Shown one piece after another: positions 3,084 to 61,265 of a stretch of DNA of 64,000 nt. The stretch's first letter is position 1, and every line of letters starts with the position of its first letter. Location of the stretch: positions 32,001 through 96,000 of the IMG/VR virus record IMGVR_UViG_3300025018_000101; one strand, 5' to 3'. A program made the position numbers and the translations under genes. Below the pieces are notes generated by a model that worked only from the letters and a program-made list of their open reading frames with translations, did no database searches and had not been told where the DNA came from. Source of the stretch: a virus.

Positions 3084-4148
3084 ATGCCGATCCTCGACAT
3101 CCCACCTGACCTCGTCGCTCCGTCCGGCCCCACGCTCGGGACGCAGCGTCGACGGGCGACGGCCTCGGGCGGCCGTCTCGTCTACGAGACCGAGACGTGG
3201 GTCACCTACCAGGGCGACCTGCCAGACGTCGGCGTCTTCACTTACCGCATCGCGGACCCGGCCGACCCTACGACCGACGTCCTGATGCGCGTGGCGACCC
3301 CGGCGGACCTGGTCACGTGGGGCGCCGACCGGTGGGCGGCTGTGGACGCGGGCGAGGGCTACTTCCGCCAGGGGTACCTCCTACGGCAGTTCACCGACGT
3401 TCGGGCGGCCACCCAGGACGCCCAGGTGGTCCAGGAGCTCGTCGACCTGCTCGTGACGACCTGGGCGACCTACCAGGACGAGTTCACCACTGAGGCGCTC
3501 GTCGGCGGGGTTGAGGACCTGTCCTGGCCCTTGCCTGACGCCACCCTGCTCGAGGGCCTCGTGGCGACCTACGACGAGGCGGTCACCGCTCGCGCGGCCA
3601 AGGCGGAGGAACTGGTCGACAAGGCGACGGAGGTCACCGCAGCGGCCGCTCGCGCCGCCGAACTCGACGCCGACGTCCTGGCGCTCACCGCAGCCGCGGA
3701 CCAGGCATCTGCGGTCTCCGACACGCTCACCAACTCCCTGGCGGGCTTCGTCCTGTTCTCCACGGACGCGGCCGCGTTCGCTGCCAACGTCGAGGGCGGA
3801 ACCGACGTCTACCAGGACACGGCGACGGCCTCGGACCCCGCGTGGGCGTGGTTCAAGGCCGAAGGGATCGTACCGCTGGCGAAGGCGGACTTCGACGCCA
3901 GCATCGCGAGCGCGGCGGCGTACATCGCCGAGATGCGGAGGCAGACGGCCAACGCCTCGGATGTCTACGCCGCCCTGGCGGCCCAGGTCGTGTCGCGCAC
4001 CTCAGCCCTGACGGTCGCGCGCCAGACCCTGGCGACGGCATCGACCGAGAAGATCACGCTCCAGTACGAACTCAATGCCCTTACCGCCGAGGTCGCCGCG
4101 GCTACGGCAGCCGTCCTGGCCGTGGACTCGGGCTACAGCTTCACCTAA
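3084..4148 (+). CDS. Hypothetical virion protein with C-terminal coiled coil
   Basis: GAGG RBS; Ala-rich heptad-like C-terminal half; ends at a hairpin. Confidence 0.7.
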   Translation: MPILDIPPDLVAPSGPTLGTQRRRATASGGRLVYETETWVTYQGDLPDVGVFTYRIADPADPTTDVLMRVATPADLVTWGADRWAAVDAGEGYFRQGYLLRQFTDVRAATQDAQVVQELVDLLVTTWATYQDEFTTEALVGGVEDLSWPLPDATLLEGLVATYDEAVTARAAKAEELVDKATEVTAAAARAAELDADVLALTAAADQASAVSDTLTNSLAGFVLFSTDAAAFAANVEGGTDVYQDTATASDPAWAWFKAEGIVPLAKADFDASIASAAAYIAEMRRQTANASDVYAALAAQVVSRTSALTVARQTLATASTEKITLQYELNALTAEVAAATAAVLAVDSGYSFT

Positions 4149-4180
4149 AAGAAAGCCCCCGGCAGGTGCCGGGGGCTTTC
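4145..4180 (-). terminator. Hairpin + TTTTAG terminator between convergent genes
   Basis: Inverted repeat GAAAGCCCCCGGCA / TGCCGGGGGCTTTC, followed by TTTTAG on the minus strand. Confidence 0.85.
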
Positions 4181-4196
4181 GCCCCGCTCGATGTGC

Positions 4197-5696
4197 TCAG
4201 AACCCGGCGGCGCGCGCGAGCGCGCCTGGGCCGTACCCGCCGATGACGTACACGACGCGGCCGGGCGTCTCCGTCCGTTTGGCCTTGTGCGAGAGGCCGT
4301 GGCTCACGTGCCGGATGAGCACGAAGGCCAGGTCGCCCTCGCCGAGGCGCCCGATCGCCGAGCAGACGGTGTCGTCTGGCACTCCCGAGGGGAGCCAGAC
4401 GGCGTCGTTGGCCGCGTATGCGCCCGTCAGCGCTTTCGTGATCGCCGGCCGGGCGGCGCCGCCGACGATCAGGATGTTCCGACCCTTGAAGGGCGACCCG
4501 TCGACCTCCGGGTCCTCGGCGTCCTCCTCGGCCTGCGCCGCGGCCAGGAACCTCTTGACCGCGGACTTGACGGGCTTTGCGCTCCTGGTGTTCCACACGG
4601 ACACCGGGAGGGTCGCCAGCGCCCCGAGTACGCGCTGGTCGAGGGCCATGCCCTCTTGCACGGCGTCGGCGACCGCGTCGCGGAGGGCGTTCCGCGTCAA
4701 GGTCCCGTCCTGCTCCGCGTCGAGCCACATCTCGACGCGCGCCTGCCCGGCCCCCTGCGTCACGACGTTCGGGTCGTCAACCCCGAACGCCAGCAGCTCC
4801 GACAGCGCGTACTCCGCGTCGTCGGACCAGGAGCCGCCCGAGCGCGGCTCCTGGTCACGGCCAAAGCCGTGGATGAAGCCGCATTTGAGGTCGTCCGCGA
4901 CACACCGGGTGCGGACGAACAGGTTCCACTGCTTCAACTGGGCAGTGTGCCCAGGCGTCGGAGCGCAACCGCCGAGGTGGCGGAGGCGCGCCGCGGCGTA
5001 CCGGAGCAGCTCCCGCTGCACGTCCAGGGGCTGCGACTGAGCCGCAACCCAGACTGCGGCCACCGCCTCCCGGGCTCGGCCCGCCTCGGCCTCCCAGTTG
5101 TCGGCCTTGGAGAGCCACGAGGCCGCCGGGATCCTCCCGTACCCTCGGAGGAACTCGGAGACCGCCCTGCGGTCTACGGCGGGTTCCTCCCGCCCCCTCT
5201 CCTCCGCGAGTTCGAGCTCGAGGCGCGCGAGCTCCTGGCGTCGCTCCGCCAGGAGACCGACCTGATGGCCGGCCGCTTCGAGGAGGCCGGCGACCTCCCT
5301 CTTCCGGTCGGCCTCGAGGGCCGCCGACTCCTCAAGCGCGCGCCGACCCTCCGCCGCCTCCAGGGCCGCCTCCTGGTACCTGGCCGTCGCGGCCGCCGCC
5401 AACGCCGAGGCGTTGTCGGCGTTGGCGACGAGCGCCACGGCCTCCGCCTCCAGCTCCTGGATGCGGGCGAACAGCTCCGCCTCCAGGGAGGGGTCGGCCA
5501 TCGGGGCCGCGACGGGAGGCGCAAGCACCACCTCGCCCTTGTAGACCGCGCGGCCGAGGTCCTGGAGGGCGCCCTTGAGCGCCTCCGAGGCCTCGACCAT
5601 GTCGGCCCGCTTACCGCCCCCGAGGGCGGTGTTGATGACGGCCGCTTCGCGGGCGGCGACGGCGGAGAGGAGCGCCTCGAATTTTGCCTGGGACAT
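4197..5696 (-). CDS. Coiled-coil protein with C-terminal DUF2325-like domain
   Basis: Start reset to ATG 5696 (GGAG RBS). C-terminal ILIVGG...DLAFVLIRHVSHGLS resembles DUF2325 from memory. Confidence 0.6.
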   Translation of the reverse strand: MSQAKFEALLSAVAAREAAVINTALGGGKRADMVEASEALKGALQDLGRAVYKGEVVLAPPVAAPMADPSLEAELFARIQELEAEAVALVANADNASALAAAATARYQEAALEAAEGRRALEESAALEADRKREVAGLLEAAGHQVGLLAERRQELARLELELAEERGREEPAVDRRAVSEFLRGYGRIPAASWLSKADNWEAEAGRAREAVAAVWVAAQSQPLDVQRELLRYAAARLRHLGGCAPTPGHTAQLKQWNLFVRTRCVADDLKCGFIHGFGRDQEPRSGGSWSDDAEYALSELLAFGVDDPNVVTQGAGQARVEMWLDAEQDGTLTRNALRDAVADAVQEGMALDQRVLGALATLPVSVWNTRSAKPVKSAVKRFLAAAQAEEDAEDPEVDGSPFKGRNILIVGGAARPAITKALTGAYAANDAVWLPSGVPDDTVCSAIGRLGEGDLAFVLIRHVSHGLSHKAKRTETPGRVVYVIGGYGPGALARAAGF

Positions 5697-5720
5697 GAAG
5701 ACTCCGGGGTTGTGTCCCGC

Positions 5721-5749
5721 TTGCTCAGTGCCGGCGGGACGGGTAGAGT
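5721..5749 (+). promoter_or_regulatory. sigma70-like promoter
   Basis: TTGCTC-17 nt-TAGAGT upstream of 5787. Confidence 0.6.
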
Positions 5750-5786
5750 GGCAGGGTCGAGTCAGACGTCCACGACGGAGTACGCC

Positions 5787-6824
5787 ATGCCGATCATCGA
5801 CCACACCAGGGACCGCGGCGTCATGCTGCAGCCTATCTTGCAGCGACGTCCTGACCTTGTGTCAAGGATCAAGGTCGCTGCCGAGGCGCTGAGCCAGACC
5901 AAGCGCGGGGCGTACGCATGGCCCGAAGCAGGGCTGTTCCCCGTGGACACGCCGGAGAACACCGCGCTGTCGTACCTGTACGTCGGCATGCAGGCACGCG
6001 ACGTGCCCCGGGGGGTCCAGTACAAGGTGGCTTCGGCCGCGGTGGCTTGGGGCCTCGACATAGGCGCCCTGACGAGCGCCCTGACCGAGCGCCGGGACCT
6101 GACGAAAACGGCTGCGCCTCGCGTCGACCCAGACGACTACGCGCTGCCGGCCGAGCGCCGCCTGCGCATCAAGACGGCCGACGAGGTCCAGGCTGCGCAG
6201 GCTGCGCTGGCTCGGTACTCGAGGGACCTCGGCATGATCAAGACGGCCTCGGCAGCGGTGCGGATCGTCAACCGCGCCAGGGCCATTGGCATGAGAGAGA
6301 GTGACCTCTCCCCGGCCACGAAGACCTACGCGGGCCTCGTGGCCTGCGACCTGTACAAGCTGGCCGACGCTCTCACGGCCAGGGCCGTTGCGGCGCCGAC
6401 TCCATCGTCGCGCAGCGCCTACCATGACGCGTCGACCGCTGCCCACGCCCTGGGGCGGACGGCGCGCCTGTCCACGGATCGCGCGACCCTGTCGAAGATC
6501 GCGTCTCACATCGACGCTATCGACCAGGCCTCAGGCGTCCGGAGGAAGCACCCGGGTCTGCCGGACCCGCTGATGGCCGTGTTCAACACGTCGAAGGTGG
6601 CCGGGGGGACCATCGACCTGGCGGGCGTCCAGGCAGACGTCAACAAGCTCTCGGCGCTGGACGCGGGTACCTTCGAGGACGTGCTCGGTCCCGAGTTCGT
6701 GGCCGAGATCACCGACGCCTCGGGCGCCGTCGACCCGCAGCTCATCGCCACGGTCATCCCCACCCTGCCCCTCGACATGAAGCGCGCGCTCGGGGCTGCG
6801 CTCAAGAGCGTGGTGGGGGTGTGA
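5787..6824 (+). CDS. K-x-A-rich putative head protein with DUF6582-like repeats
   Basis: ATG 5787 with GGAG RBS; the upstream part of ORF 4191 is an antisense shadow. Two repeats, YAWPEAGLFPVDT and YALPAERRLRIKT; 8 K-x-A motifs. Confidence 0.7.
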   Translation: MPIIDHTRDRGVMLQPILQRRPDLVSRIKVAAEALSQTKRGAYAWPEAGLFPVDTPENTALSYLYVGMQARDVPRGVQYKVASAAVAWGLDIGALTSALTERRDLTKTAAPRVDPDDYALPAERRLRIKTADEVQAAQAALARYSRDLGMIKTASAAVRIVNRARAIGMRESDLSPATKTYAGLVACDLYKLADALTARAVAAPTPSSRSAYHDASTAAHALGRTARLSTDRATLSKIASHIDAIDQASGVRRKHPGLPDPLMAVFNTSKVAGGTIDLAGVQADVNKLSALDAGTFEDVLGPEFVAEITDASGAVDPQLIATVIPTLPLDMKRALGAALKSVVGV

Positions 6825-10929: not shown

Positions 10930-11904
10930 TCACGCCGGGGTGCAGCCGTGCAGCGCCAGCGAGGCTGCTTCCGCAGCCGCCTGGCCGCTGCCGTGGGGGT
11001 CGAAGACGACGACCCGTCGAGCGGAGCGCAATCGGTTGCACGCTCCGCAGGTGTTGCAGGACAGCCCGATGGTCTGGGCAGGGCACGCCAGCGCCGTGAC
11101 GCCCTCGGGCAGCAGTTCGGTCAGGGCCTCGAGCTGGTCGTGGGGCCACACGACGGCGCCGCCAGAGTCCAGCAGGTCGGAGTAGTTCACCACGATGCCC
11201 GCAGCCTCAAGGCGCGGCCGCCACGGCTCGAACTCGGCCACCTCGACATGCGTATAGGTCCAGGCCCATGCACCGGCCACGCGCCGTGTGCGGATGGGGG
11301 ACGGGTCAGCACCCGTCAGGAGGCCGAGGTGCTCGAGCCCTCGGAGGTAGACGGTGTCGAGCTCGCCGTCTCGGTAGAAGTCCCCAGAGGTGTGCAAGCG
11401 CACCAGAGACCGGGCCTTGCGCGCCATGAAGACGCCGACGACGACGGACGCCAGGGACGCGGCGACGGATTCTGTCGCCCTGACGCTGTGCATCCGGACG
11501 TTGCCGCCCGAAGCGTAGCAGCCCTTGAGGTAGGGGCAGGCGGGGCAGGTCGCCCCTACGGGCCGGTACGTGGATGGGCCGGCGACCTTGCCGTTCCCGG
11601 TCCCGACCGGATTCGCGGTCTCGCCGGCGAAGAGCCGGATGCCCCCGCGGAGCGTCGTTGCGCTCCCTCGGGCGGCGATGGTCTTGTCCATCAGGGCGTA
11701 GAGCCCGGTGGTCCACGCTCTCTCGAGCGGGCCCCAGGACGCCCAGGTGGGTCGCAGCGCGGGCAGGGCCAGCATGGCCTCCCCCATCATCTGCGTGAAG
11801 GCACCCGCGTCTCCGCGGGGCAGGAACTTCAGTTCAGGGCATCCCAGGTCGGGGTGCCCATCTTCGATCATACGGACCTCCATGGGGCGCGTCCACCGCA
11901 GCAT
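10930..11904 (-). CDS. Gp88/DUF7227-like Cys-rich (Fe-S, radical-SAM-like) protein
   Basis: Motifs NGKV, TCPACPYLKGCYA, VRLHTSGDF, AWTYTH, CPAQ...CNTCGAC, FDPHG. Confidence 0.65.
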   Translation of the reverse strand: MLRWTRPMEVRMIEDGHPDLGCPELKFLPRGDAGAFTQMMGEAMLALPALRPTWASWGPLERAWTTGLYALMDKTIAARGSATTLRGGIRLFAGETANPVGTGNGKVAGPSTYRPVGATCPACPYLKGCYASGGNVRMHSVRATESVAASLASVVVGVFMARKARSLVRLHTSGDFYRDGELDTVYLRGLEHLGLLTGADPSPIRTRRVAGAWAWTYTHVEVAEFEPWRPRLEAAGIVVNYSDLLDSGGAVVWPHDQLEALTELLPEGVTALACPAQTIGLSCNTCGACNRLRSARRVVVFDPHGSGQAAAEAASLALHGCTPA

Positions 11905-11923: not shown

Positions 11924-11931
11924 CTTATACC
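11924..11931 (-). promoter_or_regulatory. GGTATAAG putative phage-RNAP promoter
   Basis: Same motif as in the 28.6-30.4 kb cluster; about 20 nt upstream of ATG 11904. Confidence 0.6.
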
Positions 11932-11949: not shown

Positions 11950-11979
11950 TTGCCGCCAGGACGCGCTTGCGTGTATGCT
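11950..11979 (+). promoter_or_regulatory. sigma70-like promoter for terminase
   Basis: TTGCCG-18 nt-TATGCT. Confidence 0.5.
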
Positions 11980-12011: not shown

Positions 12012-13673
12012 ATGCGAGGTCAGGTGCCCACCGAAAAGGGGCGAGCGCGGCAGGTCAGGCTCACGCACGCGCAGTTCGCCCAGCGGGTCTACAAGCTCGG
12101 TGCAGGCCCCTACTCGCTCAAGGACTACCCCTTCGTCGCGGACGTCCTGAACCGGCGGGCCCAGCAGCTCGTGCTGCTCACGGCGCGCCAGATCAGCAAG
12201 TCGACCATCCTGGCCATCCTGGCGTTGAACGAGCTCATCTCGCGACCGTACTGGGGCGTCCTCTACCTCAGCCCGTCGAAGGCGCAGACCACGGTGTGGT
12301 CCGCGATGCGTCTCGGCAGGCTCGTGCGCCAGAGTCCGTACGTTCGGGACAACTTCACGGCCCCCGCGCTGGCCCAGGGCATCTGGCGCAAGGAGTTCAC
12401 GAACGAGTCCTACGTCATCTCGACCTACGCCTCGGACGACGGCGACCGAGCCCGAGGTAACTCCGCCGACCGCGTCAATTACGACGAGGCGCAGGACATC
12501 GTCCTCGACGAGGTCGAGCCCGTTGTCTCCGAGGCCGTGGCCAACTCCGAGTATGGCTACCTGACGTACTCAGGCACCCCGAAGACCCGCGACAACGCCA
12601 TCCAGGGCCTGTACGAGTCGAGCACCCAGCGCGAGTGGGTGATGAAGTGCCCGGCCTGCGGCTCCTGGCAGTTCATCACGCGCGCCGAGTCCATCGACCT
12701 CCAAGGCCTGAGGTGCCTCAAGAGGGGGTGCCGTGGACTGCTCAACCCCCGCGAGGGCCACTGGCACCCGATGAACCTCCGGGACCGGTCCCACGGCGAC
12801 ACGTCCTTGCAGCCCGAGGGCTACCACGTCCCGCAGGTCATCCTGCCCCGCAACCTGGAGAACCCGACGCGGTGGGCGCGTATCCTCCACAAGAAGTCCA
12901 CCTTCGGCGACGCGGAGCTCAGCAACGAGGTCCTCGGCGTGAGCGTGGCGCTCGGCGCCCGCATGTTGAGCGAGGATGACCTGCGAGCGCGCTGTCGCGC
13001 CTACGTGTGCAGCGAGCCGCCAGACCCGAGCATCTTCGAGGACATCATCACGGACATCCGCGGCCGACGCGAGGTCTACGCAGGTATCGATTGGAGCGGA
13101 GAGGGCAACGCTGGTCGCAGCACGACGTGCCTGTGGGTCTGGGGCGTGCTGCCCAACAACAAGCTCAAGACGCTGTTCTTCAGGCTCTATCCGCCCGGCA
13201 ACCCCATTGAGGCGGTCGACGACATCGCGCGCGTCTGCATGCTCTTCCAGGTCAAGCTCGTCGGGGCGGACGCGGGCAACGGCGGCGTCGCCAACCCCCT
13301 GCTCGCGCGCAAGATCGGCAGGGGGCGGGTCCTGCAGTTCCAGTACGGGTCCTTCAAGGAGCAGGTCCAGAAGGGCCCCGACCGGTTCTACGTCGACAGG
13401 ACCACGGCGATCGACAGCATGATGCTGCAGCTCTCCCTGCCACTGGTGTACTTCCCCACCGAGCAGCAGAGCGAGCAGTTCTTCCGGCATGTGCTGGCGC
13501 TGTACGAGATGGTCACGCAGAATGGAAACGGCCGTCGCATCTGGAACAAGCCCATCGACCGCCTCGACGACTACTTCCACGCCATGGTCTTCGGCTGGCT
13601 CGGGACTCGGGCAGGCCGTGGCGAGTTCGCTTTCTACGACACGGGCAAGGACGACGAGGACGTCGTCCAGTAG
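12012..13673 (+). CDS. terL: Terminase large subunit (GpA-like)
   Basis: AGGAGG RBS; Walker A-like TARQISKST, Walker B VNYDEAQD, SGTPK coupling motif, CPAC...C..C Zn ribbon, RNase H-like AGIDWSG and DDYFHA. Confidence 0.88.
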   Translation: MRGQVPTEKGRARQVRLTHAQFAQRVYKLGAGPYSLKDYPFVADVLNRRAQQLVLLTARQISKSTILAILALNELISRPYWGVLYLSPSKAQTTVWSAMRLGRLVRQSPYVRDNFTAPALAQGIWRKEFTNESYVISTYASDDGDRARGNSADRVNYDEAQDIVLDEVEPVVSEAVANSEYGYLTYSGTPKTRDNAIQGLYESSTQREWVMKCPACGSWQFITRAESIDLQGLRCLKRGCRGLLNPREGHWHPMNLRDRSHGDTSLQPEGYHVPQVILPRNLENPTRWARILHKKSTFGDAELSNEVLGVSVALGARMLSEDDLRARCRAYVCSEPPDPSIFEDIITDIRGRREVYAGIDWSGEGNAGRSTTCLWVWGVLPNNKLKTLFFRLYPPGNPIEAVDDIARVCMLFQVKLVGADAGNGGVANPLLARKIGRGRVLQFQYGSFKEQVQKGPDRFYVDRTTAIDSMMLQLSLPLVYFPTEQQSEQFFRHVLALYEMVTQNGNGRRIWNKPIDRLDDYFHAMVFGWLGTRAGRGEFAFYDTGKDDEDVVQ

Positions 13674-28310: not shown

Positions 28311-28311
28311 T

Positions 28312-40371: not shown

Positions 40372-41460
40372 ATGAGCAGCCTCTCCCTGACCAAGATCGC
40401 CTTTGCCCGCGGCGTTGCCAATTACCTCCAGGTGAACGGTCTGACGCGCTTCCCTGACGAGGCCCACATCAAGGCGGCCTCGACGTACGTCGCCGAGCGC
40501 GTGATGCGGGCCGACCCTCTGGACACCGCGTACACCCCCACGGATGCGCAACGCGTCGCCGAGGGGGTCTACAAGGTGAGCCAGGCGTACGCCAGGACCG
40601 GCAAGGTCGCGGCCGCCGGTGCTCCCGTGGCCGCTATCCGGACCCACGACGCCGCCTACGGCGACCTCATCCGGTGGGCGTACAAGACCGCCATGGACGA
40701 GAGCGACAACGGCGGCGGTCTCGTGGCGACGAGCCCCGAGCAGAACTCGCCGGCGAACGCCTCGACGCTACTGGGTCAGATCGAGAACAGCGAGCGTCCC
40801 GAGGGCTATGCGACCGTCCCGATGGGTGGCGCGAACATCCAGGACACCCCGTCGTCGGCGATCATCGGCACCGAGATGCCCGCCCCGGGCCAGGACGCCG
40901 GTACCGTGGCCGGTGGCGCCACCAACTCGCTGCAGCAGGTCTCCGACAAGGAGGCCCGCGCGCGGGGTCGCGCTCCCCTGTCCAGCCTCGAGCGCCTGCT
41001 GCGGAAGGTGGCCGAGGGTGAGAGCGACAACGGAGGCGGTCTCGTGGCGACGAGCCCCGAGCAGAACTCGCCGGCGAACGCCTCGACGCTGCTGGGTCAG
41101 ATCGAGAACAGCGAGCGTCCCGAGGGCTATGCGACCGTCCCGATGGGTGGCGCGAACATCCAGGACACCCCGTCGTCGGCGATCCTCGGCACCGAGATGC
41201 CCGCCCCGGGCCAGGACGCCGGTACCGTGGCCGGTGGCGCCACCAACTCGCTGCAGCAGGTCTCCGACAAGGAGGCTGCTGATCGGCGCTTCCTGGCGCT
41301 CAGCGCTGAGATCCTCCCGTGGCTGCCGCGCAACCTGACGGCGGCCGAGAAGGTGGCCGAGTGCCAGGCGTACGTCAACGCGTCGCCGTCGGCGCGTCTG
41401 CTCCACCGGAGCCTGCGCGCTCAGGAGTCCAAGCAGGCCTCGGCGCGCTCGCAGTACTGA
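40372..41460 (+). CDS. K-x-A-rich head/core protein with an internal duplicated domain
   Basis: AGGAG RBS; 9 of 10 lysines are in K-x-A. Confidence 0.75.
   Translation: MSSLSLTKIAFARGVANYLQVNGLTRFPDEAHIKAASTYVAERVMRADPLDTAYTPTDAQRVAEGVYKVSQAYARTGKVAAAGAPVAAIRTHDAAYGDLIRWAYKTAMDESDNGGGLVATSPEQNSPANASTLLGQIENSERPEGYATVPMGGANIQDTPSSAIIGTEMPAPGQDAGTVAGGATNSLQQVSDKEARARGRAPLSSLERLLRKVAEGESDNGGGLVATSPEQNSPANASTLLGQIENSERPEGYATVPMGGANIQDTPSSAILGTEMPAPGQDAGTVAGGATNSLQQVSDKEAADRRFLALSAEILPWLPRNLTAAEKVAECQAYVNASPSARLLHRSLRAQESKQASARSQY
40699..41276 (+). repeat. 257-bp direct repeat (40699-40955, 41020-41276)
   Basis: Near-identical copies (about 3 substitutions), period 321 bp. Confidence 0.95.
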
Positions 41461-47020: not shown

Positions 47021-48304
47021 ATGTCCGAAGAAGACTTCAACCTGTTCCTGGCCAACGTCCTGGCCTCCGTCCACGGGGCGGGCAAGGTGGCGTCCCTGAT
47101 GCGGCGCCCCATCAGCGAGGTCTACGCCGCGAAGCTGTCGGCCTACTACGGCCAGCCGGTCTCGCCCGACTTCAGTCTCGCCGACGTGGTCAAGCACGTG
47201 AGCGAGAAGTTGGGGCGCGCGCGCACCGTTCACCGCCAGACGCTCGACGGCATCGAGGCGATCCGCGAACTGTCCAAGGTCGGTGGCTCCGACCCCGACC
47301 CCGACCCCGACCCCGGCCCGTCGCGCTTCCGAGGCGCCCTGGCGGGCTGGGGCGCAGGCGGTGCTGCGGGCTCCGTCCTTGGCGCCGGTCTAGGGGTGGC
47401 AGGCGGACTGGCGGGCCTGCATTACATGAGGCGCGCTGGGGACGAGCGTCTGGTGGAGGCCCTCGCGGACAACCCCGAACTGTCCTCAAGGGCGCTGGCG
47501 GCAGGCGTAGGCGTGGCCGGTGGCGGCGCCGGCGCGCTCCTGGGCGGAACCGTCTCCGGCGCTACGGGCCTCATGGCGGGCGCGAGTCGCCCCGGCGGCG
47601 CCGACCCGGACGCGCCCTGGTACGCGGGACACGGCGCGGCGGGCGCCCTACTCGGAGGCGCGGCGGGCGCCCTACTCGGAGGCGCGGCGGGCGGCGTGCT
47701 GTCCGCCCCACCCCGGGAGGGCGTCTCCGCGCTGGGGCGCCTCGGTGCTGGAGCCCTCATCGGCGCGGGGCTCGGCGCGGCGGGCGCCGTGGCCGCGGAC
47801 CGCGCCACCTCCTGGCTCGCGCCCCGAGACGCCGAGCGCCAGAAGACCGGCGGCGAAGCCCTCCGCTACGACGCAGGTCGTGGTGCCGAGGCGGGCGGCA
47901 TGGTTGGCGGGATCGGTGGCGGACTCGCCGGTGCGGGCCTGGGGGCTTACACGGGCAGCGGCTGGAAGAGCCGCCTCGCCCGAGGAGCTGCTGGTGGTCT
48001 CGCCGGGGCGATCGGAGGGGGCACGGTCGGCATGGGCGTCGGTGCGCACACGGGTGCCGGCGCCAGCGTCATCGACCCTCAGGGCGTCACCCCGGAGTGG
48101 CAGCGGCACGCGGTAGGCGGCGGCGCACTCGGCGCCGGTCTGGGAGTGGCCGGCGGGGCTGCGACTGGGGCCCTGCTGGGCCGTGGGTGGCGCGATGCAC
48201 TGACCGCCGGTCTTGGGGCGGGCCTCGCCGGAGGAGTCGCTGGCGGCCTCGGGGGAGCAGTGGTGGGTGGCCAGCGTCAAGCCATGGACAACGTCGGCCT
48301 CTGA
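47021..48304 (+). CDS. Multi-glycine-zipper protein
   Basis: Roughly 10 GxxxG hydrophobic segments after a (DP)4 linker. Confidence 0.75.
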   Translation: MSEEDFNLFLANVLASVHGAGKVASLMRRPISEVYAAKLSAYYGQPVSPDFSLADVVKHVSEKLGRARTVHRQTLDGIEAIRELSKVGGSDPDPDPDPGPSRFRGALAGWGAGGAAGSVLGAGLGVAGGLAGLHYMRRAGDERLVEALADNPELSSRALAAGVGVAGGGAGALLGGTVSGATGLMAGASRPGGADPDAPWYAGHGAAGALLGGAAGALLGGAAGGVLSAPPREGVSALGRLGAGALIGAGLGAAGAVAADRATSWLAPRDAERQKTGGEALRYDAGRGAEAGGMVGGIGGGLAGAGLGAYTGSGWKSRLARGAAGGLAGAIGGGTVGMGVGAHTGAGASVIDPQGVTPEWQRHAVGGGALGAGLGVAGGAATGALLGRGWRDALTAGLGAGLAGGVAGGLGGAVVGGQRQAMDNVGL

Positions 48305-48327
48305 GAGGCCCGTAAGGAGACCCGGAT

Positions 48328-49086
48328 ATGACACAGCCCTTGTACCTGACCCGACTGCTCCAGAAGACCGCCGCCCGCAAGGAAGAGCCGGCGTGGGACC
48401 CCGCCATGGAGGTCGACCTGACGCCGGCCGAGCAGGCGCGGTTTGACAGGGCCGCCGCCGAAGAGGCGCGGCGCGGCGGCTACGCCGGCGGCCTCATCGG
48501 CGCAGGTGCTGGCGCGCTGATGGGCGGTGCCGGCGCCGCCGCCTGGGGCCGCTCGAGGGGTCACGGCCTCGGCCGTGTCGTGGGCGAGGGAGCGCTCGGA
48601 GCGCTTGGCGGCGCAGCGGCTGGGTTCTTCGAAGGAGACGTAGCGGGTGGAGCGGTCGGCGGGCTCTCCATGTACGCGGACCGGGACTCAAAGCCGAACT
48701 TGCGCGACCAGTACGGATTTGGAGCGGCCCTCCCTGCGGGCTTCGCCGGGGGTCTCATGGGCGCTGGCGCCGGTGCTGTTGGTGCGCACGAACTGTTACG
48801 GGGCGCGCCGGCGCGGATCCTGGTGCCGGCTACGCTGGTGGGCGGCGGTCTGGGCGCCCTGGCTGGCGGAGCCTTGAGCGGGCTCTCCGGGTACGGCGCG
48901 GGCTACGGGCTGGGTCTGGTGCGCGAGGGTATGGACGCCGCCACGGGGTCGAGGCCGCCAGCCAACCCGCTCGAGGGCATCGACACGGTCGCCAGGGAGC
49001 GGGCCGTCGAGGAGTACCTCGCCAACGGAGGCAAGGAGGCTTCGGCCGCCCCCGTCTATCTCAATCGCCTGCTGCGGAGGCTGTAG
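48328..49086 (+). CDS. Glycine-zipper protein, copy 1
   Basis: AAGGAG RBS; KTAA near the N-terminus and KEAS near the C-terminus. Confidence 0.75.
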   Translation: MTQPLYLTRLLQKTAARKEEPAWDPAMEVDLTPAEQARFDRAAAEEARRGGYAGGLIGAGAGALMGGAGAAAWGRSRGHGLGRVVGEGALGALGGAAAGFFEGDVAGGAVGGLSMYADRDSKPNLRDQYGFGAALPAGFAGGLMGAGAGAVGAHELLRGAPARILVPATLVGGGLGALAGGALSGLSGYGAGYGLGLVREGMDAATGSRPPANPLEGIDTVARERAVEEYLANGGKEASAAPVYLNRLLRRL

Positions 49087-49243
49087 TGGCGCACGACAAG
49101 GCCATCGAGTTCGGTCAGTACGCCCCGACAGGCGAGCCGTCGATGCAGGTCATCGACCGGCGCGACGTTGGCCTGCGGAAGTACGCCTCGGCCGAAGCCA
49201 TGGACAACGTCGGCCTCTGAGAGGCCCGTAAGGAGACCCGGAT

Positions 49244-50002
49244 ATGACACAGCCCTTGTACCTGACCCGACTGCTCCAGAAGACCGCCGCCCGCAAGGAA
49301 GAGCCGGCGTGGGACCCCGCCATGGAGGTCGACCTGACGCCGGCCGAGCAGGCGCGGTTTGACAGGGCCGCCGCCGAAGAGGCGCGGCGCGGCGGCTACG
49401 CCGGCGGCCTCATCGGCGCAGGTGCTGGCGCGCTGATGGGCGGTGCCGGCGCCGCCGCCTGGGGCCGCTCGAGGGGTCACGGCCTCGGCCGTGTCGTGGG
49501 CGAGGGAGCGCTCGGAGCGCTTGGCGGCGCAGCGGCTGGGTTCTTCGAAGGAGACGTAGCGGGTGGAGCGGTCGGCGGGCTCTCCATGTACGCGGACCGG
49601 GACTCAAAGCCGAACTTGCGCGACCAGTACGGATTTGGAGCGGCCCTCCCTGCGGGCTTCGCCGGGGGTCTCATGGGCGCTGGCGCCGGTGCTGTTGGTG
49701 CGCACGAACTGTTACGGGGCGCGCCGGCGCGGATCCTGGTGCCGGCTACGCTGGTGGGCGGCGGTCTGGGCGCCCTGGCTGGCGGAGCCTTGAGCGGGCT
49801 CTCCGGGTACGGCGCGGGCTACGGGCTGGGTCTGGTGCGCGAGGGTATGGACGCCGCCACGGGGTCGAGGCCGCCAGCCAACCCGCTCGAGGGCATCGAC
49901 ACGGTCGCCAGGGAGCGGGCCGTCGAGGAGTACCTCGCCAACGGAGGCAAGGAGGCTTCGGCCGCCCCCGTCTATCTCAATCGCCTGCTGCGGAGGCTGT
50001 AG
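49244..50002 (+). CDS. Glycine-zipper protein, copy 2
   Basis: Identical translation to copy 1. Confidence 0.7.
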   Translation: MTQPLYLTRLLQKTAARKEEPAWDPAMEVDLTPAEQARFDRAAAEEARRGGYAGGLIGAGAGALMGGAGAAAWGRSRGHGLGRVVGEGALGALGGAAAGFFEGDVAGGAVGGLSMYADRDSKPNLRDQYGFGAALPAGFAGGLMGAGAGAVGAHELLRGAPARILVPATLVGGGLGALAGGALSGLSGYGAGYGLGLVREGMDAATGSRPPANPLEGIDTVARERAVEEYLANGGKEASAAPVYLNRLLRRL

Positions 50003-51975
50003 TGGCGCACGACAAGGCCATCGAGTTCGGTCAGTACGCCCCGACAGGCGAGCCGTCGATGCAGGTCATCGACCGGCGCGACGTTGGCCTGCGGAAGTAC
50101 GCCTCGGCCGATGTGGAATCACTTGAGGTCTTGCGCACCGCGCCGTCCCTGCCCGGCCACACCATGGCGCTCGTCCTGGCGATGACCGCCTACGAGTTCT
50201 ACGGCTTCAACCGCAACGGCGACGGCTTCCACGAACGGAAGTACGACGCCACCCTCTGTGACGGTCGGCGCGTGACGCTCTGTACCGACGCCGAGTCCTT
50301 GCCTGCGTGGCACAAAACCTTCGAGACGGTCGGAAAGAACTTCTTGTTCCACGCCAACAAGGACCCGAGCAAGGCGGTCGGTCGCATCGCCCGGTCGATC
50401 TACAACTGGAAAATGCACCGCGTCGAGCTCATCGTAGCGGTCGACAACGGCCGAGCCGACAAGATCGTCCAGCGCTTGCGGGACCGCGAGTACCCAGCCG
50501 TCAGTATGGGCTGTAGGATACCCGCAGACGTGTGCGTATACTGCGGCAACCGGGCACCAACTCGCGCTCAGTACTGCATCCACGTCAGCGGCCACGACCC
50601 GCGCTACGGCCTCGGCACGATCCTGGACAGCGGCATCGAGATGGGTGTGCTCAACCCGTGCCCGGAGCTCTTCGACTTGTCGTGGGTGTGGAAGCCGGCC
50701 GATCGGGTGGCGTACACCATGCGGCACCTCGACGGGGTGGGAGCGGCCTCCGACTTGCTGAAGGCTGCTTCGGAGCGGCCGTACGCCATACGCCGCCCCG
50801 GGGCGGAAACCAAGGTGGCGTCCGTGACTCCCCGTACCTCGAAGGACCAGGAGCTCGACGCCGCCAAGTGCGCCGCGCTCAAGAAGCTGTCCGAGATCGA
50901 CAAGATGGTCGACGGCGAGCTCAGCGCAGCCCCTTACGCCGGCGGCACGCCGGCGGTCATGAAGGCGCTGGCGCAGTCATACGCGAAGGACTTCGAGCCT
51001 GTCGGTGACGACGTCATCGAGGAGATGGCCCGGCGTCCGCTCCGTGACAGCGTGGCGACGTTCTCGTCTATGGACATGTCGCCGTCGGCCGACGAGCTGC
51101 TCCGCCTCTTCTCTCACTGGTCCGGAGGTGGGTCGGACGACGTCCAGGCGGTTCCGGTGGGCTCCATCCGCAGGGTCATCCTCCGTGTGTTCGGCGACAG
51201 TCCCGACCTCGTGGACGTCTGTCAGGGCGCGGCCGGGGTGGGGGTGGGGGCGGCGCCGGGGGACGCGAGCTTGAAGCTCGCGAGCCTGCTCGCGCCGATG
51301 ATGGAGAAGCGCGCACTCGCTGGCGACCTCCTGATGCGCAAGTACGTCCCGGAGAACGCGGGGGTGTGGACGGGACTGGTCGGAGGGGACCCCGGAGCCG
51401 CGTACTACGGCCGGGCGCAGCAACCCCTGCACGCCACCGACCCCTCCACGGGGGACCGCTACGCCACGACGCGTAACGTCGCCGAGCAGACCGACTTGAA
51501 CAACGTCAAGCACAAGGCCCTCGAGGCCGGCGTCCTGGCGGGGGCCACGGGCATCGGCGTCGGCGCGATGAGTCTGATGGGCCGGAAGAACAAGGCGCTT
51601 CGCGTCGCGCGATGGCCGGTGGGAGCTGTCGGCATGGGCCTGGCGGGGTACGCTGGCCTGCGCAAGATCCCCGAGTTCAAGACCGACGAGGGCGTGTCGG
51701 TACCGCACAACACGCCCATGTCCAAGATGAGCGCAGCCGACACCGACGCCGGGCTGTACCTGATGGCAGCGGCCGCTGGCGGCCGGCGTCACTTCGCGTT
51801 TGAGAAGAGCGCGGAGGCGGAGCTCGACAGACTCCGTTCGCAACTTGTATACACGGACCCTTCGGGGTACTCACGTTTGCGTGCCTCGTCTTCGGAGTTC
51901 CTCTCGAAGGTGTCCGAGGCGCTTGTGCGAGCCGTGCGCCGCTGCGGGCTTGCGCCTTCGATTCGACCGACGTAG
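50002..51975 (+). CDS. Prohead maturation protease (HK97/assemblin-like) with Zn finger and C-terminal extension
   Basis: NRNGDGF, His motif FLFHANK, Ser motif VSMGC, CVYC...CIH, FDLSWVWKPAD (equivalent to E-v-S-x-V-x-x-PA); lies upstream of scaffold and capsid genes. Confidence 0.75.
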   Translation: MAHDKAIEFGQYAPTGEPSMQVIDRRDVGLRKYASADVESLEVLRTAPSLPGHTMALVLAMTAYEFYGFNRNGDGFHERKYDATLCDGRRVTLCTDAESLPAWHKTFETVGKNFLFHANKDPSKAVGRIARSIYNWKMHRVELIVAVDNGRADKIVQRLRDREYPAVSMGCRIPADVCVYCGNRAPTRAQYCIHVSGHDPRYGLGTILDSGIEMGVLNPCPELFDLSWVWKPADRVAYTMRHLDGVGAASDLLKAASERPYAIRRPGAETKVASVTPRTSKDQELDAAKCAALKKLSEIDKMVDGELSAAPYAGGTPAVMKALAQSYAKDFEPVGDDVIEEMARRPLRDSVATFSSMDMSPSADELLRLFSHWSGGGSDDVQAVPVGSIRRVILRVFGDSPDLVDVCQGAAGVGVGAAPGDASLKLASLLAPMMEKRALAGDLLMRKYVPENAGVWTGLVGGDPGAAYYGRAQQPLHATDPSTGDRYATTRNVAEQTDLNNVKHKALEAGVLAGATGIGVGAMSLMGRKNKALRVARWPVGAVGMGLAGYAGLRKIPEFKTDEGVSVPHNTPMSKMSAADTDAGLYLMAAAAGGRRHFAFEKSAEAELDRLRSQLVYTDPSGYSRLRASSSEFLSKVSEALVRAVRRCGLAPSIRPT

Positions 51976-51978
51976 AAT
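51950..51978 (+). promoter_or_regulatory. sigma70-like promoter of the capsid operon
   Basis: TTGCGC-17 nt-TAGAAT. Confidence 0.65.
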
Positions 51979-52015: not shown

Positions 52016-52717
52016 ATGTCTAAGCAAATGACCATCGAGCAGGCCCTCTCGGCGCTTCAGGGCGCGTCCGACCCGAAGACGGCCGCGGCCCATACACCTG
52101 GGGCGGCCGGCAACAACGTCTACCAGGCGCAGGCCGCGGTGTCCGCGTCGGCGCAGAATCTCCAGAAGGTCGCGGGCGCTCCTGGCCTCCAGCAGGGCAG
52201 CGCCCAAGTGGACGCTGACGTCCTGCTCAAGATCGCCAGTCGCATCGCGGCCGCCGAGGAGCAGGCCATCGTCGCCGAGGGTTCCGCCCTTGGTGCGGCC
52301 ATCTTCGACGGCTTCATGAAGGCGGCCGGTTCGACCATCCACGCGGTGGACCAGCACGCGCCCCAGTACCGTCCGGCTCGCCAGCAGACGATCGACGACG
52401 TCGCTTACAAGGTGGCGTCGGCCTCGGCGGCCGACGCGTGGGACGTCATCGACGCGCTGCAGCCGCCGGCTCGCCAGCAGACGATCGACGACGTCGCTTA
52501 CAAGGTGGCGTCGGCCTCGGCGGCCGACGCGTGGCAGGCCCTCGACGCGCTCGGCGCTCCTTCCGAGAGTCGGGCCTACCAGATGAAGGTCGCGGCGGCT
52601 GAGCGGCAGGAGTTCTCGGAGGGTCTGGTGAGCGGTCTCGACAAGGTCGCCGAGTTCTGTGCGGCCGCGTTCGAGCAGGGCAACGAGCTGGCCGCGGCGG
52701 CGCTCGCTCCGCGCTAG
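52016..52717 (+). CDS. Scaffold/core-like protein, K-x-A-rich
   Basis: AGGAG RBS; 8 of 9 lysines are in K-x-A; 69-bp internal repeat (52373-441, 52466-534). Confidence 0.7.
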   Translation: MSKQMTIEQALSALQGASDPKTAAAHTPGAAGNNVYQAQAAVSASAQNLQKVAGAPGLQQGSAQVDADVLLKIASRIAAAEEQAIVAEGSALGAAIFDGFMKAAGSTIHAVDQHAPQYRPARQQTIDDVAYKVASASAADAWDVIDALQPPARQQTIDDVAYKVASASAADAWQALDALGAPSESRAYQMKVAAAERQEFSEGLVSGLDKVAEFCAAAFEQGNELAAAALAPR

Positions 52718-53957: not shown

Positions 53958-54485
53958 ATGTCCATTCTCGACCCCCAGGAGCACTACGACATCATCTTCG
54001 GCGGCGGCAGCCCCGAGGATTCGGCGAGCTTCCTCCAGGACTACACGCCGGCGACCGGCGTCGAGCTCACCATCGGCGACGTCGTCGAGGTCGTCTCGGA
54101 GGGCGGCTTGCCGCGCGTCTCGAAGCTGACCTACGCGGCCTTCGTGAGCGCGTGCGCTGGCGGTGCGACGCCGACGGCGGCGCAGGCCGACACCGCCATC
54201 ATGGCGGCGTGGGACGCCCTCATGGCCAAGAAGCGCGCCCTCGTCGTGTGGGAGGGCAACTCCGAACTGGAGGGTGGTTACCTCGCGAACACCGTCACCA
54301 CGATCTTCGGGTCGTACGTCATGGAGACGACCAACTTCGCCGCGGGCGTCTACGCGCCGGGCGTGAAGGTCAGCGTGGCGTCCGGCGCGGTCAAGGTCAA
54401 GGCGACCGGTGAGCCGACCTTCGGCGAGGTCGTGGCGTACGACTCCACGGCGGCGGTGTTGACCGTCGCCGTCCCTGGTCTGTAA
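53958..54485 (+). CDS. Capsid decoration/cement-like protein
   Basis: Beta-rich, 175 aa, immediately before the MCP. Confidence 0.55.
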   Translation: MSILDPQEHYDIIFGGGSPEDSASFLQDYTPATGVELTIGDVVEVVSEGGLPRVSKLTYAAFVSACAGGATPTAAQADTAIMAAWDALMAKKRALVVWEGNSELEGGYLANTVTTIFGSYVMETTNFAAGVYAPGVKVSVASGAVKVKATGEPTFGEVVAYDSTAAVLTVAVPGL

Positions 54486-54565
54486 TCCAAGGGGAGACCC
54501 CGAGGGGGGGGCTCCCCTCCCGTGACACCAGCCCTGCTCAGCGGGGTGACGCAGGAGAAGACATC

Positions 54566-55507
54566 ATGAGCATGGGCGGTTACCAGGGGTACCAGACCGA
54601 GACCCCGAAGATCAGCGAGGCCCAACTGGCGGCGACGTGGCTTGGCCTCCTCGACGGCGGTCCTCACCAGAAGGAGGCGTCCGAGAGGACCAACTCCTTC
54701 ATCCGCGACAAGATGCGCGAGAAGTCGTTCGCGCGCCTCATCCTGACTCCGCAGACGCTGGGCGACGAGGAGGTCGACCGCCGGGTCGAGAGCGATCTCC
54801 CGATCAAGATCGTCGAGAAGGAGCCGGACTCCCGCGCGACGTTCGTGACGTTCAAGGGCGCGGGCCCTCGCGCCTGGATCAAGGGTCAGCGGTACGCGGT
54901 GCACTTCGGCTACATCTCCAGCCAGCGGTGGCGGAAGAACAAGCTCGAACTGATGACCTCGCGCACCGACCTGAAGGAGCTCCTGGCGGACAACGCCGTC
55001 AAGGACTGCGCCGCCCAGGAGGATGGCAAGTTCCTCGAGACGGCGCTGGAGATCACGGCGGCCGCGGCGGCCACCCAGGTCATCAACTTCACGTCCCGCC
55101 TGTCGAAGGACGGGATCGTGTCCGGCATCCAGGCGATGCTGGCGAACCAGATCCCCGCCGGGGTGATGCTGTGCACGCAGCAGCTTTGGTGGGACCTCGC
55201 GCGTCTCCAGGCCAACAACATCGGCGACCCGGCGACGGACCGCCTGTGGCAGAACGGCGTGGAGAAGACCGAACTGTTCGGGATGCGCTGCATCACGACG
55301 ATCAAGAACGACATCGTCGACCCGAACGACCTCTGGATCTTCGCGCCCGAGCAGTACCTGGGGAACTTCTTCCTCCTCCAGGACGCCACCTTGTTCATCA
55401 AGCAGGAGGGCCCCGAGATCATGTTCTACGTGTACGAAGCCCCGGGTATCGGCTTCGGCAACACCAAGGGCATCATCCGGATCCGCTTCAACCGCGCCGT
55501 GGCGTAA
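54566..55507 (+). CDS. Major capsid protein
   Basis: AGGAG RBS; strong codon bias; 313 aa; position after protease, scaffold and decoration genes; HK97-like C-terminus FYVYEAPGIGFGNTKGIIRI. Confidence 0.75.
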   Translation: MSMGGYQGYQTETPKISEAQLAATWLGLLDGGPHQKEASERTNSFIRDKMREKSFARLILTPQTLGDEEVDRRVESDLPIKIVEKEPDSRATFVTFKGAGPRAWIKGQRYAVHFGYISSQRWRKNKLELMTSRTDLKELLADNAVKDCAAQEDGKFLETALEITAAAAATQVINFTSRLSKDGIVSGIQAMLANQIPAGVMLCTQQLWWDLARLQANNIGDPATDRLWQNGVEKTELFGMRCITTIKNDIVDPNDLWIFAPEQYLGNFFLLQDATLFIKQEGPEIMFYVYEAPGIGFGNTKGIIRIRFNRAVA

Positions 55508-60044: not shown

Positions 60045-61180
60045 CCGAGCCCTACATCCACAACCACAGCGCTCTCTGGCTCACCGGGGCCTTCGTGGCC
60101 TTCCTCAGGGAGCGCTTCTCGATCAAGAACGCCACGCCGTGGGTGGCCTTCGACGACCTCAACAACCCCGGCCAGGTGCTCACCGGCAGAGACGGACTGC
60201 CGTACGAGGCCATCCCGCTGTACATCATCACCGAGTTCGACTCCTCGACCGAGACCGACAACCTCTACCCTCGCATCGTCGTCACTGCGGGGCAGGACAT
60301 CGGAGGCCGGCACGAGGTGATCGGCGACCTGGGTGTGGCCGACTTCACGCCGTTCCGGACCGGAGAGCGGACGAAGTGGGGCACGTCGGAGCTGGACATC
60401 GAGTTCCACGTCTACGGGGAGGAGCTCGGCGAGGCCCGGTACATCTCCGAGATCGCAGGCAACGCGGTTCGGATGACGCAGCAGTCCATCACGGAGAAGT
60501 TCACGCTCCGGGACCTGACGCCCGTGGTGGTGCAGGCCCCGCGCCCGGACGCGATGGGCAAGTGGATGGGCGCGGTCAGCATGCGCCTCTTCAAGGAGGA
60601 CCGCTGGTTCACCATCCCTGACGCCAGTCGGCTCCAGAGGCTGGCGACGGTCATCGACATGGACAACGTCGTCGCTCAGACCAACGCGTCGCTGCGCGAG
60701 GTCGGGCGGGTCTCGGTAGGGTTCCCACGGTCCGCACCAGACGACCCAAGCTCCGGGGGAGGCGTCTACCCGCCGTCGTCTGCTGCGGCCGCCGCTGTCG
60801 ATACCCTCGACCTCGTCGCCGCGGTCGACATTGGGGCGGGGCGCCTCGTCGCCGTCGACGTGGCGGGCAAGGCGGCCCTGGCTTCAAACCTCGACGGCGA
60901 CAACCTGTGGCGTATCGTAGGGGTCGCCATCGACGCAGCCCTGCCCGGCCAGACGACGCGCGTTCACACGATGTTCTCCGCCGTACCTGTCACTTTCCAG
61001 GCCGCTCCGGCTCTCGGGACGGCCGGCAGCTACGTCTATGCGGACACGGATGGATTTGCTACATTGACCGCGCCATCCGACCCCGGGACGGTCGTCGTTC
61101 GCGTGGGTGTACTGCTCGACCCAGATGGTGCGGAGACCTCTCCGCGCGTGTTGTTCCAGCCCCTGGTGCCGTTGACATGA
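60041..61180 (+). CDS. Tail terminator/completion-like protein with C-terminal beta domain
   Basis: Directly before the sheath gene; YPRIVV motif; C-terminal cement-like IVGVAIDAALPG. Confidence 0.5.
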   Translation: MTEPYIHNHSALWLTGAFVAFLRERFSIKNATPWVAFDDLNNPGQVLTGRDGLPYEAIPLYIITEFDSSTETDNLYPRIVVTAGQDIGGRHEVIGDLGVADFTPFRTGERTKWGTSELDIEFHVYGEELGEARYISEIAGNAVRMTQQSITEKFTLRDLTPVVVQAPRPDAMGKWMGAVSMRLFKEDRWFTIPDASRLQRLATVIDMDNVVAQTNASLREVGRVSVGFPRSAPDDPSSGGGVYPPSSAAAAAVDTLDLVAAVDIGAGRLVAVDVAGKAALASNLDGDNLWRIVGVAIDAALPGQTTRVHTMFSAVPVTFQAAPALGTAGSYVYADTDGFATLTAPSDPGTVVVRVGVLLDPDGAETSPRVLFQPLVPLT

Positions 61181-61236
61181 CGCGCAGGGCCTGAGTCTGA
61201 AGAAGCACCGACCTCGCGAGGGCGTCTCCTGCCTTG

Positions 61237-61265
61237 TTGCACCCGCAGCGGCTATGGCGTATCCT
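61237..61265 (+). promoter_or_regulatory. sigma70-like promoter of the tail operon
   Basis: TTGCAC-17 nt-TATCCT. Confidence 0.6.

Follow-up and report, generated by a model that had tools for sequence, protein, structure and literature searches.

Two sigma70-family promoter grammars partitioned between the coding strands in a phage genome with a cellular-type RNA polymerase

When a phage encodes an RNA polymerase resembling that of cells, and its transcription units are headed by promoters of two kinds, which enzyme reads which promoter? The question is raised by a 64,000-nucleotide stretch of viral DNA (hereafter the window), which corresponds to bases 32001-96000 of IMGVR_UViG_3300025018_000101, a single IMG/VR virus contig of 155,236 bp with 69% guanine plus cytosine (GC). 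A sequence-only reading of the window had proposed that host-type promoters precede the late and replication operons, that a different motif, GGYAYAAG, precedes small stand-alone units, and that this arrangement follows the logic of phage N4, with a packaged multisubunit RNA polymerase in the place of the enzyme that N4 injects. We followed up these proposals in the window, in the whole contig and in related phages. The genome contains two distinct promoter grammars of the sigma70 family, here called class I and class II, and these are divided between the two coding strands. Positions are those of the window unless they are given as genome positions or assigned to another phage.

Two promoter classes on opposite strands

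Gene calling with a codon-bias model yielded approximately 174 genes in the whole contig. The called genes form long strand blocks, the plus strand carrying the structural and the minus strand the non-structural ones. Intergenic DNA makes up 7.4% of the genome.

Class I consists of paired −35 and −10 hexamers like those recognized by sigma70. Seven such pairs, with spacers of 17-18 nt, had been pointed out previously, and all seven are present, 33-50 nt before a start codon. Six are on the plus strand: TTGCTC-17-TAGAGT (5721-5749) lies 38 nt upstream of a gene at 5787-6824, TTGCCG-18-TATGCT (11950-11979) 33 nt upstream of the large terminase gene, TCGACT-17-TACAGT (30373-30401) 37 nt upstream of the start codon of the polymerase gene, TTGTAC-17-TAGTAT (40294-40322) 50 nt upstream of a gene at 40372-41460, TTGCGC-17-TAGAAT (51950-51978) 38 nt upstream of a gene at 52016-52717 in the head module, and TTGCAC-17-TATCCT (61237-61265) 42 nt upstream of a structural gene encoding 969 amino acids. 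The seventh, TGGACA-17-TACAGT (23629-23657), is on the minus strand, 41 nt upstream of the replication operon. To these we add TTGACC-16-TGTAAT (54459-54486, plus strand), upstream of the major capsid gene, which was absent from the previous list. This bears out the claim that host-type promoters stand ahead of structural operons, of the replication operon, and of the terminase and polymerase genes.

We assessed the class with a matrix of the sigma70 −35 and −10 elements, allowing spacers of 16-18 nt in genome-wide scans and of 15-19 nt in tests against shuffled and antisense sequences. Scores at p<=0.05 were obtained for 15 of 71 upstream regions, compared with approximately 3.5 expected from 200 dinucleotide shuffles per region. 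In one-directional intergenic regions, 11 of 54 scored in the sense orientation and 1 of 54 in the antisense orientation, and coding windows almost never scored. Genome-wide, 34 sites reach at least 7.5 bits; 22 of the 34 are intergenic, and 13 or 14, among them all seven of the previously listed pairs, are located 28-80 nt upstream of a start codon on the same strand (Poisson P<=3e-6). When sites are anchored on TAnnnT alone, the −35 score and the number of TTG trinucleotides both peak at a spacer of 17 nt, and a −35 signal is seen only at spacers of 16-18 nt. In its hexamers, its 17±1 nt spacer and its position upstream of genes, class I has the properties of housekeeping sigma70-type promoters. 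The same type of site recurs in related phages: before the gene for the large polymerase chain, a sigma70-like pair of at least 6 bits occurs in the sense orientation in 20 of 32 relatives (GC content 0.42-0.68) and in the antisense orientation in 4 of 32. Many relatives have TTGTnT-18-TATAnT at this place, ending 6-9 nt ahead of the start codon. Class I is thus a genuine signal in two parts, and its type is conserved.

Class II is built around the GGYAYAAG box. The window contains 10 copies, all on the minus strand, compared with 2.8±1.6 expected, and the genome contains 16 exact copies, 15 of them on the minus strand. Five of the copies in the window head tandem units at 28.3-30.4 kb, one is found at 11931, and four are inside coding sequence, two of these belonging to an exact 916-bp duplication (see below). 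A matrix derived from the intergenic copies extends the box to GGYAYAAG-N3-TTG, and its ten best matches genome-wide are all intergenic and directed towards genes. Further upstream, CAA[AT] occupies positions −21 to −18 in 5 of 13 class II sites (p=2e-7 in a test chosen post hoc).

The five tandem units, named A to E, are all on the minus strand. Unit A, with an open reading frame (ORF) of 73 codons (30108-30329), is headed by GGCATAAG(gct)TTG, whose box is at 30363-30370. Unit B, a highly structured RNA of 289 nt, is headed by GGTATAAG (30027-30034), unit C, with a 77-codon ORF (29374-29607), by GGTACAAG (29662-29669), unit D, of approximately 570 nt and with no convincing ORF, by GGCATAAG (29296-29303), and unit E, with a small ORF ending at 28312, by GGCATAAG(agt)TTG (box at 28674-28681). 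Elsewhere in the window, GGTATAAG (11924-11931, minus strand) is situated 60 nt upstream of a GP88/DUF7227-like gene (10930-11871, minus strand). The description of GGYAYAAG as a mark of small stand-alone units fits these five mini-units. It is too narrow for the class as a whole, because outside the window long minus-strand operons have class II boxes at their heads as well (genome positions 135958, with approximately ten genes of which the first is for a Mg-chelatase-like ATPase, 140911, 125199, 106571 and 103763), and there is one plus-strand case, at genome position 146868.

The ends of these units are marked as well. The word TTTAG occurs 23 times in the genome, counting both strands; 20 copies are intergenic, and 19 follow a strong hairpin, all of these 19 being intergenic and 18 on the minus strand. 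Ordinary intrinsic terminators end in long U-runs, whereas the tail here is short and hardly varies from TCTTTAG. Five hairpins with TCTTTAG close units A to E (28258-30102, minus strand), with TTTAG at 30068, 29732, 29332, 28722 and 28262. In further terminators of this kind, TTTAG is located at 10857 and 14030 on the minus strand and at 10924 on the plus strand, and a hairpin followed by TTTTAG (4145-4183, minus strand) stands at the end of the minus-strand gene 4197-5696. Since the minus-strand units start with GGYAYAAG and end with TCTTTAG, they carry private punctuation at both ends. Strand and functional module separate class I from class II almost perfectly (Fisher p=7e-5).

The polymerase, its proposed sigma partner and related phages

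The sequence-only reading had described the polymerase as a multisubunit enzyme of the beta/beta' type encoded among head genes, and we confirmed both points. The large chain (30438-36149, plus strand; 1903 amino acids) is a beta chain fused to the N-terminal half of beta', with Pfam matches to Rpb2_6 (1.5e-46), Rpb1_2 (1.3e-19) and Rpb1_1, and with the catalytic motif NADYDGD. The second chain (37040-38863, plus strand; 607 amino acids) is the C-terminal half of beta', matching Rpb1_5 (1.1e-13). The locus at 30438-36149 is the sole beta-type locus of the genome. Among cultured phages, the nearest relatives of the polymerase are found in Arash, a Salmonella phage (gp206 and gp216), and in three Vibrio phages, with 34% identity between the large chain and Arash gp206; the closest relatives of all reach approximately 51% identity. 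There are 177 related stretches among IMG/VR viral contigs, the contigs of relatives extending to approximately 195 kb, and the small chain has at least 314 metagenomic homologs. On one side of the polymerase genes is the portal protein gene (23702-25447, plus strand; homolog of Arash gp204, E 7e-72), and on the other are genes for a protein with a head maturation protease-like domain (50002-51975, plus strand; PHROG 18299, 1.7e-7) and for the major capsid protein (54566-55507, plus strand; PHROG 2522; homolog of Arash gp226, E 9e-53).

Arash (OQ632216, ‘Arashvirus’; PMC10585845) has the same two polymerase chains, gp206 and gp216 being homologs at 30-35% identity. Common to both phages are also a gp10-type sigma factor, the portal, capsid and terminase proteins, the SNF2 helicase, the GGTATAAG box and the division of structural and non-structural genes between strands. 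Searches with tblastn gave E values of 1e-52 to 0 for gp1, gp204, gp206, gp216, gp217 and gp226, and profiles of cellular RNA polymerases match, which places the present phage among the Arash-like phages. It differs from Arash in its GC content of 69%, in an intein within the polymerase, in the fusion of the sigma factor into a Nudix-containing protein of 834 amino acids, and in that a sigma factor of the gp196 type was not found. The lineage also fits the published description of mReC, a metagenomic clade of Caudovirales comprising IMG/VR contigs with bacterial-like beta and beta' genes (PMC7481178). The two papers on the lineage (PMC10585845, PMC7481178) do not describe promoter or terminator grammar, strand partition or temporal control.

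The GGYAYAAG box is kept in Arash and in five uncultured relatives. Arash infects Salmonella and has 53% GC, and its genome has 34 copies of GGTATAAG on the minus (non-structural) strand and two on the plus strand. The box heads approximately 30 non-structural units, and one of the two plus-strand copies is directly upstream of gp9-gp10, which includes the sigma gene. In 30 aligned Arash sites the 8-mer is invariant, a weak TTCCATAAA is found upstream, 16-17 bp from TATAAG and thus at the canonical distance, and a conserved TAAAGTGTAAA (GTGTA) lies downstream, at the expected position of the start site. In the five uncultured relatives, four of which are complete with terminal repeats, copies opposite the polymerase gene outnumber those on its own strand by 64 to 19, while no strand bias is seen for a reversed control word. 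In the relative G001, 8 of 12 minus-strand copies are intergenic and upstream of genes, with CTAAA or TTAAA approximately 16 nt upstream of the box. Exact GGYAYAAG in the polymerase-gene loci of 80 relatives shows no strand bias (66 versus 68), but these loci are almost wholly structural, and the bias is seen in the whole-genome searches of the five relatives. That the box is kept across hosts of very different GC content indicates a phage-encoded reader.

A candidate for this reader is encoded outside the window. The last approximately 225 residues of an 834-amino acid protein from the baseplate operon are homologous to Arash gp10 (E 1e-34) and weakly match profiles of sigma regions 2-3. The best family match of gp10 itself is FliA/WhiG (6.7e-12, far below the curated cut-off), and G001 also has a homolog of the gp10 type. 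As a FliA-like sigma and the class II box are thus shared by all three analysed genomes, namely Arash, G001 and the present phage, we infer that this sigma reads class II. Rather than a private signal that works without sigma, GGYAYAAG is part of a bipartite, sigma-type promoter that is best matched to the FliA-like sigma of the phage. A possible internal promoter in the gene for the 834-amino acid polyprotein, the class II-like GGGACAAG / GGGACAAGgccTTG (genome position 21864, plus strand), was rejected, being a weak match that no start codon with a ribosome-binding site follows. The position of GGGACAAGgccTTG coincides with the start of the gp10 homology.

Promoters of sigma28 (FliA/WhiG) have the form TAAA-N15-GCCGATAA. 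Class II is similar in that it has a −35 element that is weak and rich in A (yCAAW in the present phage, TTCCATAAA in Arash and CTAAA in G001), a spacer of approximately 15-16 nt and a −10 block of 8 bp. It is different in that the −10 block is GGYAYAAG rather than GCCGATAA, the CGA core is missing, and the phage sigma matches FliA weakly.

Assignment of readers to the two classes

These observations could be accommodated by a scheme like that of N4. Class II, consisting of a weak yCAAW, approximately 15 nt and GGYAYAAG-N3-TTG, and punctuating the non-structural units of the minus strand together with the hairpin and TCTTTAG, would be read by the two-chain beta/beta' polymerase of the phage with the FliA-like sigma. 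Both proteins are encoded in structural operons, and by analogy with Arash they would probably be carried in the virion and injected. Class I, consisting of TTGnnn-17(±1)-TAnnnT at 33-50 nt before the start codon, and heading the structural operons (including the polymerase), the terminase gene and the replication operon, would be read through a housekeeping-type sigma. Such a reader needs a working sigma region 4, because class I has a clear −35 TTG at 17 bp, and since the contig was found to have no canonical second sigma, the host sigma70 holoenzyme is the most likely one. The weakness of class I sites would fit activator-dependent late promoters, as these often are weak. The two grammars probably reflect transcription being handed over between the host enzyme and one that the phage injects. 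For the N4-like division of labour itself, with phage enzyme and phage sigma on class II and host sigma70 holoenzyme on class I, we see the chances as evenly balanced, which makes it the best of the readings considered. The complete scenario, in which a sigma-dependent polymerase of bacterial type is packaged and injected with its FliA-like sigma, reads the units delimited by GGYAYAAG and TCTTTAG, and leaves the weak class I promoters to host sigma70, is put forward more tentatively, as a possibility that probably falls short in some part.

In N4, an injected virion RNA polymerase transcribes the early genes, RNAPII the middle genes, and the host sigma70 holoenzyme with the N4 single-stranded DNA-binding protein (SSB) the late genes. 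The proposed logic is alike in that a virion enzyme made late would act on private promoters, and late genes would have weak host-type promoters. The virion polymerase of N4 is, however, a single-subunit, T7-like enzyme that uses hairpin promoters and no sigma, whereas a beta/beta' enzyme and bipartite sigma-type boxes are found here. The phage does not belong to the N4 family, its sole polymerase being of the beta/beta' type rather than single-subunit and T7-like, and a search for beta-type loci gave no sign in the genome of a separate middle polymerase.

Data on packaging come from Arash. In a virion preparation of that phage, gp206 gave the most spectra of all proteins, and gp216, gp10 and the helicase gp217 were also detected (PMC10585845). 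From the published counts, we calculated approximately 2 spectra per residue for gp206, gp216, gp10 and gp217, which is similar to the portal. By analogy, and with its genes lying in the head module, packaging of the polymerase is plausible in the present phage. A further argument made previously, from the N terminus of the polymerase, did not hold. The ORF does begin MGDWGFTKLAE, with K-x-A at residues 8-10, but as a mark of packaging or processing this motif is at chance level (K-x-A occurs in the first 22 residues of 19 of 173 proteins, with roughly 8-9% expected) and is in an extension of approximately 40 residues that is missing from relatives, including Arash. The extension may be a removable leader, though nothing in the sequence supports this.

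Several observations speak against the N4-like scheme. Among the 116 proteins on the Arash virion list are ribonucleotide reductase, ligase and primase, and the authors of the list raise the possibility of carry-over (PMC10585845); with such non-structural enzymes on the list, virion association is soft evidence. The seven class I sites of the window match only 7-9 of 12 consensus positions and are thus weak. Class II cannot simply be equated with early genes, as its operon at genome position 103763 includes the endolysin. Canonical sigma70 sites of the strongest kind (at least 13 bits) are confined in Arash to the non-structural strand (9 versus 0), and the structural genes of Arash, where the present phage has TTGnnn-17-TAnnnT, carry a different −10-like box, YTAAAATA. 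Because of these two differences, a logic in which the host reads the late genes is not obviously conserved in the lineage, and the lineage appears, as judged from these genomes, to have no single fixed solution for late promoters. The last of these observations, that relatives encode a canonical sigma, is taken up below.

Near-perfect sigma70 promoters in Arash (TTGACA-17-TATAGT-like) are found at 100637, 50623, 54350, 51757, 49327 and other positions on its minus strand, several of them upstream of tRNA genes, and the host polymerase probably serves part of the non-structural arm of that phage. We did not find a −35 element for the YTAAAATA boxes of Arash; a candidate, TTGTTT, is actually the reverse of the downstream element of a neighbouring class II site. 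At Arash positions 109248, 137630 and 139406 (plus strand), YTAAAATA abuts the reverse complement of GGTATAAG (CTTATACC-CTAAAATA), forming back-to-back pairs of divergent promoters. Part of the YTAAAATA box of Arash is complementary to the TTTTAG terminator tail.

The alternative that fares best is a self-sufficient sigma cascade, in which the phage core enzyme would read both classes, using the FliA-like sigma for class II and a gp196-type sigma or captured host sigma70 for class I, and the host holoenzyme would be dispensable, as in phiKZ. A canonical Sigma70_r2 protein of the gp196 type is encoded on the structural strand in Arash and in all five of the relatives checked, four of them complete, and such a sigma on the phage core could read class I in these phages. 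In G001, one of the best class I-type sites is directly upstream of the canonical sigma gene. Moreover, class I has the geometry recognized by sigma factors that possess regions 2 and 4, and the contig is rated by CheckV at only 88% completeness. However, no canonical second sigma was found in the 155 kb of the contig, using three profiles (PF04542, PF04545 and TIGR02937) and six protein queries that included sigma2 of relatives. The two contig ends (genome positions 1-265 and 154581-155236) are both inside what appears to be a single Gly/Asn/Tyr-rich repeat gene whose product has the motif HCPWLI at its C terminus, and a complete paralog is located immediately upstream. As both ends sit in one apparent gene, the genome is probably essentially complete: the assembly probably broke at the repeat, despite the CheckV estimate, and the arrangement suggests a genome that is circular or terminally redundant. 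Furthermore, the canonical sigma gene of G001 is located between the replication operon and the structural block, where the present phage passes from the replication operon directly to the portal. We regard the cascade as rather unlikely, though not much less likely than the complete scenario above.

A T7-like course, in which nothing is injected, appears improbable. Here, the host would make the polymerase from its sigma70-like promoter, the phage enzyme and sigma would then take over the GGYAYAAG units, and the virion signal in Arash would be carry-over. It is true that the polymerase gene has its own host-type promoter, in this phage and in most relatives, and that the Arash virion list is clearly contaminated with enzymes of replication and nucleotide metabolism. 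Yet the polymerase genes have the portal gene on one side and those for the protease and capsid on the other, and the sigma is encoded in the baseplate operon, both sharing the promoter class of structural genes, so that the structural genes would be switched on simultaneously with the polymerase; and gp206, gp216 and gp10 of Arash yield approximately 2 spectra per residue, as the portal does.

Finally, it is very improbable that the sigma70-like pairs are chance matches in slightly AT-richer intergenic DNA, with the plus-strand operons driven by other signals: although the sites are weak, the plus-to-minus excess in the loci of high-GC relatives is modest (63 versus 45), and a fixed-threshold consensus scanner (9 of 12 positions) found 3 sigma70-type sites in 60 kb against approximately 2.3 expected and detected one of the seven sites, a threshold too strict for weak sites explains the lack of excess, scores are much lower in shuffled sequences, on the antisense strand and in coding windows, the −35 signal is confined to spacers of 16-18 nt, the −10 element is 33-50 nt from the ATG at all seven sites, and relatives have a site at the corresponding position before the polymerase gene.

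Comparison with other phages and neighbouring features

Jumbo phages of the phiKZ/AR9 type (PMC7598289) resemble the present phage, as proposed here, in that a polymerase related to beta/beta' is encoded among structural genes, a virion-borne enzyme would make the first transcripts, and promoters contain short AT-rich boxes in a genome that otherwise does without host signals. Their enzymes consist of four or five highly diverged chains in two sets and use no sigma, whereas here there is one set, with a fusion of beta to the N-terminal part of beta' and a partner from the sigma family, and the polymerase is close enough to cellular beta/beta' to be detected with Pfam at 1e-46. With its single beta-type locus and its sigma homolog, the phage is not of the phiKZ type.

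Virion-borne polymerases known so far are single-subunit (N4), of the crAss type, or the sigma-less split enzymes of jumbo phages. If the proposed scheme is right, a near-cellular beta/beta' polymerase and a sigma-family factor in the particle would represent a new solution, a widespread lineage with members in culture would have arrived anew at the three-way logic of N4, using an enzyme of cellular type, and a tractable minimal system of sigma and core would be available. The lineage is large, and its cultured members on Salmonella and Vibrio carry the GGTATAAG box. Our promoter and terminator assignments constitute exact, testable predictions, and the two boxes help annotators to delimit transcription units.

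The beta portion of the large polymerase chain contains an intein-like insert of 380 amino acids (residues 441-820; 31758-32897, plus strand) with a LAGLIDADG endonuclease domain (LAGLIDADG_3 match). Arash gp206 has no such insert, and its alignment with the large chain breaks at residues 440/821; LAGLIDADG genes of mycobacteriophages also match the insert. Its boundaries are Cys441 and Asn820|Ser821, and the penultimate His is replaced by Gly. Absence from the homolog, a Cys at the start, Asn|Ser at the end and a homing endonuclease domain are all as in inteins. In Vibrio phages D181 and D148, homing endonuclease genes are annotated inside the region that matches the polymerase.

Unit B (29735-30023, minus strand) is a chain of long, near-perfect hairpins with a folding energy of −191.8 kcal/mol, compared with −144.7±5.3 kcal/mol for shuffled sequences (z = −8.9). 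It has no Rfam match, and its 99-codon ORF runs through the terminator; the unit is probably a structured non-coding RNA. Unit D (28725-29292, minus strand) folds with z = −3.8 and contains GGTTCGATTCC, which resembles the T-arm of tRNAs. As neither ARAGORN nor Rfam gave a match in the window, this word is not part of a recognisable tRNA. A second GTTCGATTC is found in a separate intergenic region, at genome position 137497.

Other genes near the promoters include the large terminase gene (12012-13673, plus strand; GpA_ATPase; homolog of Arash gp1), the minus-strand replication operon downstream of the promoter at 23657, which encodes DNA polymerase A and primase, and a gene for a SNF2-type helicase (25841-28261, plus strand; homolog of Arash gp217). 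An exact tandem duplication of 916 bp with 100% identity (48279-50111) contains two identical genes of 252 codons (48328-49086 and 49244-50002). Either a genuine duplication of recent date or an artefact of assembly may account for it. The 969-amino acid protein encoded downstream of the promoter at 61237 had been called a sheath protein. It is a homolog of Arash gp236 and has no match in PHROGs or Pfam, and the label is unconfirmed.

The plus-strand gene at 5787-6824 (345 amino acids) was missed by the initial gene caller and was revealed by frame-specific GC content. Its reading frame continues free of stop codons into the antisense of the minus-strand gene 4197-5696, giving one long ORF (4191-6824), and simple callers miss the gene. 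The product has no match in PHROGs or Pfam, and is rich in K-x-A motifs (YKVAS, TKTAA, IKTAD, IKTAS, SKIAS and SKVAG).

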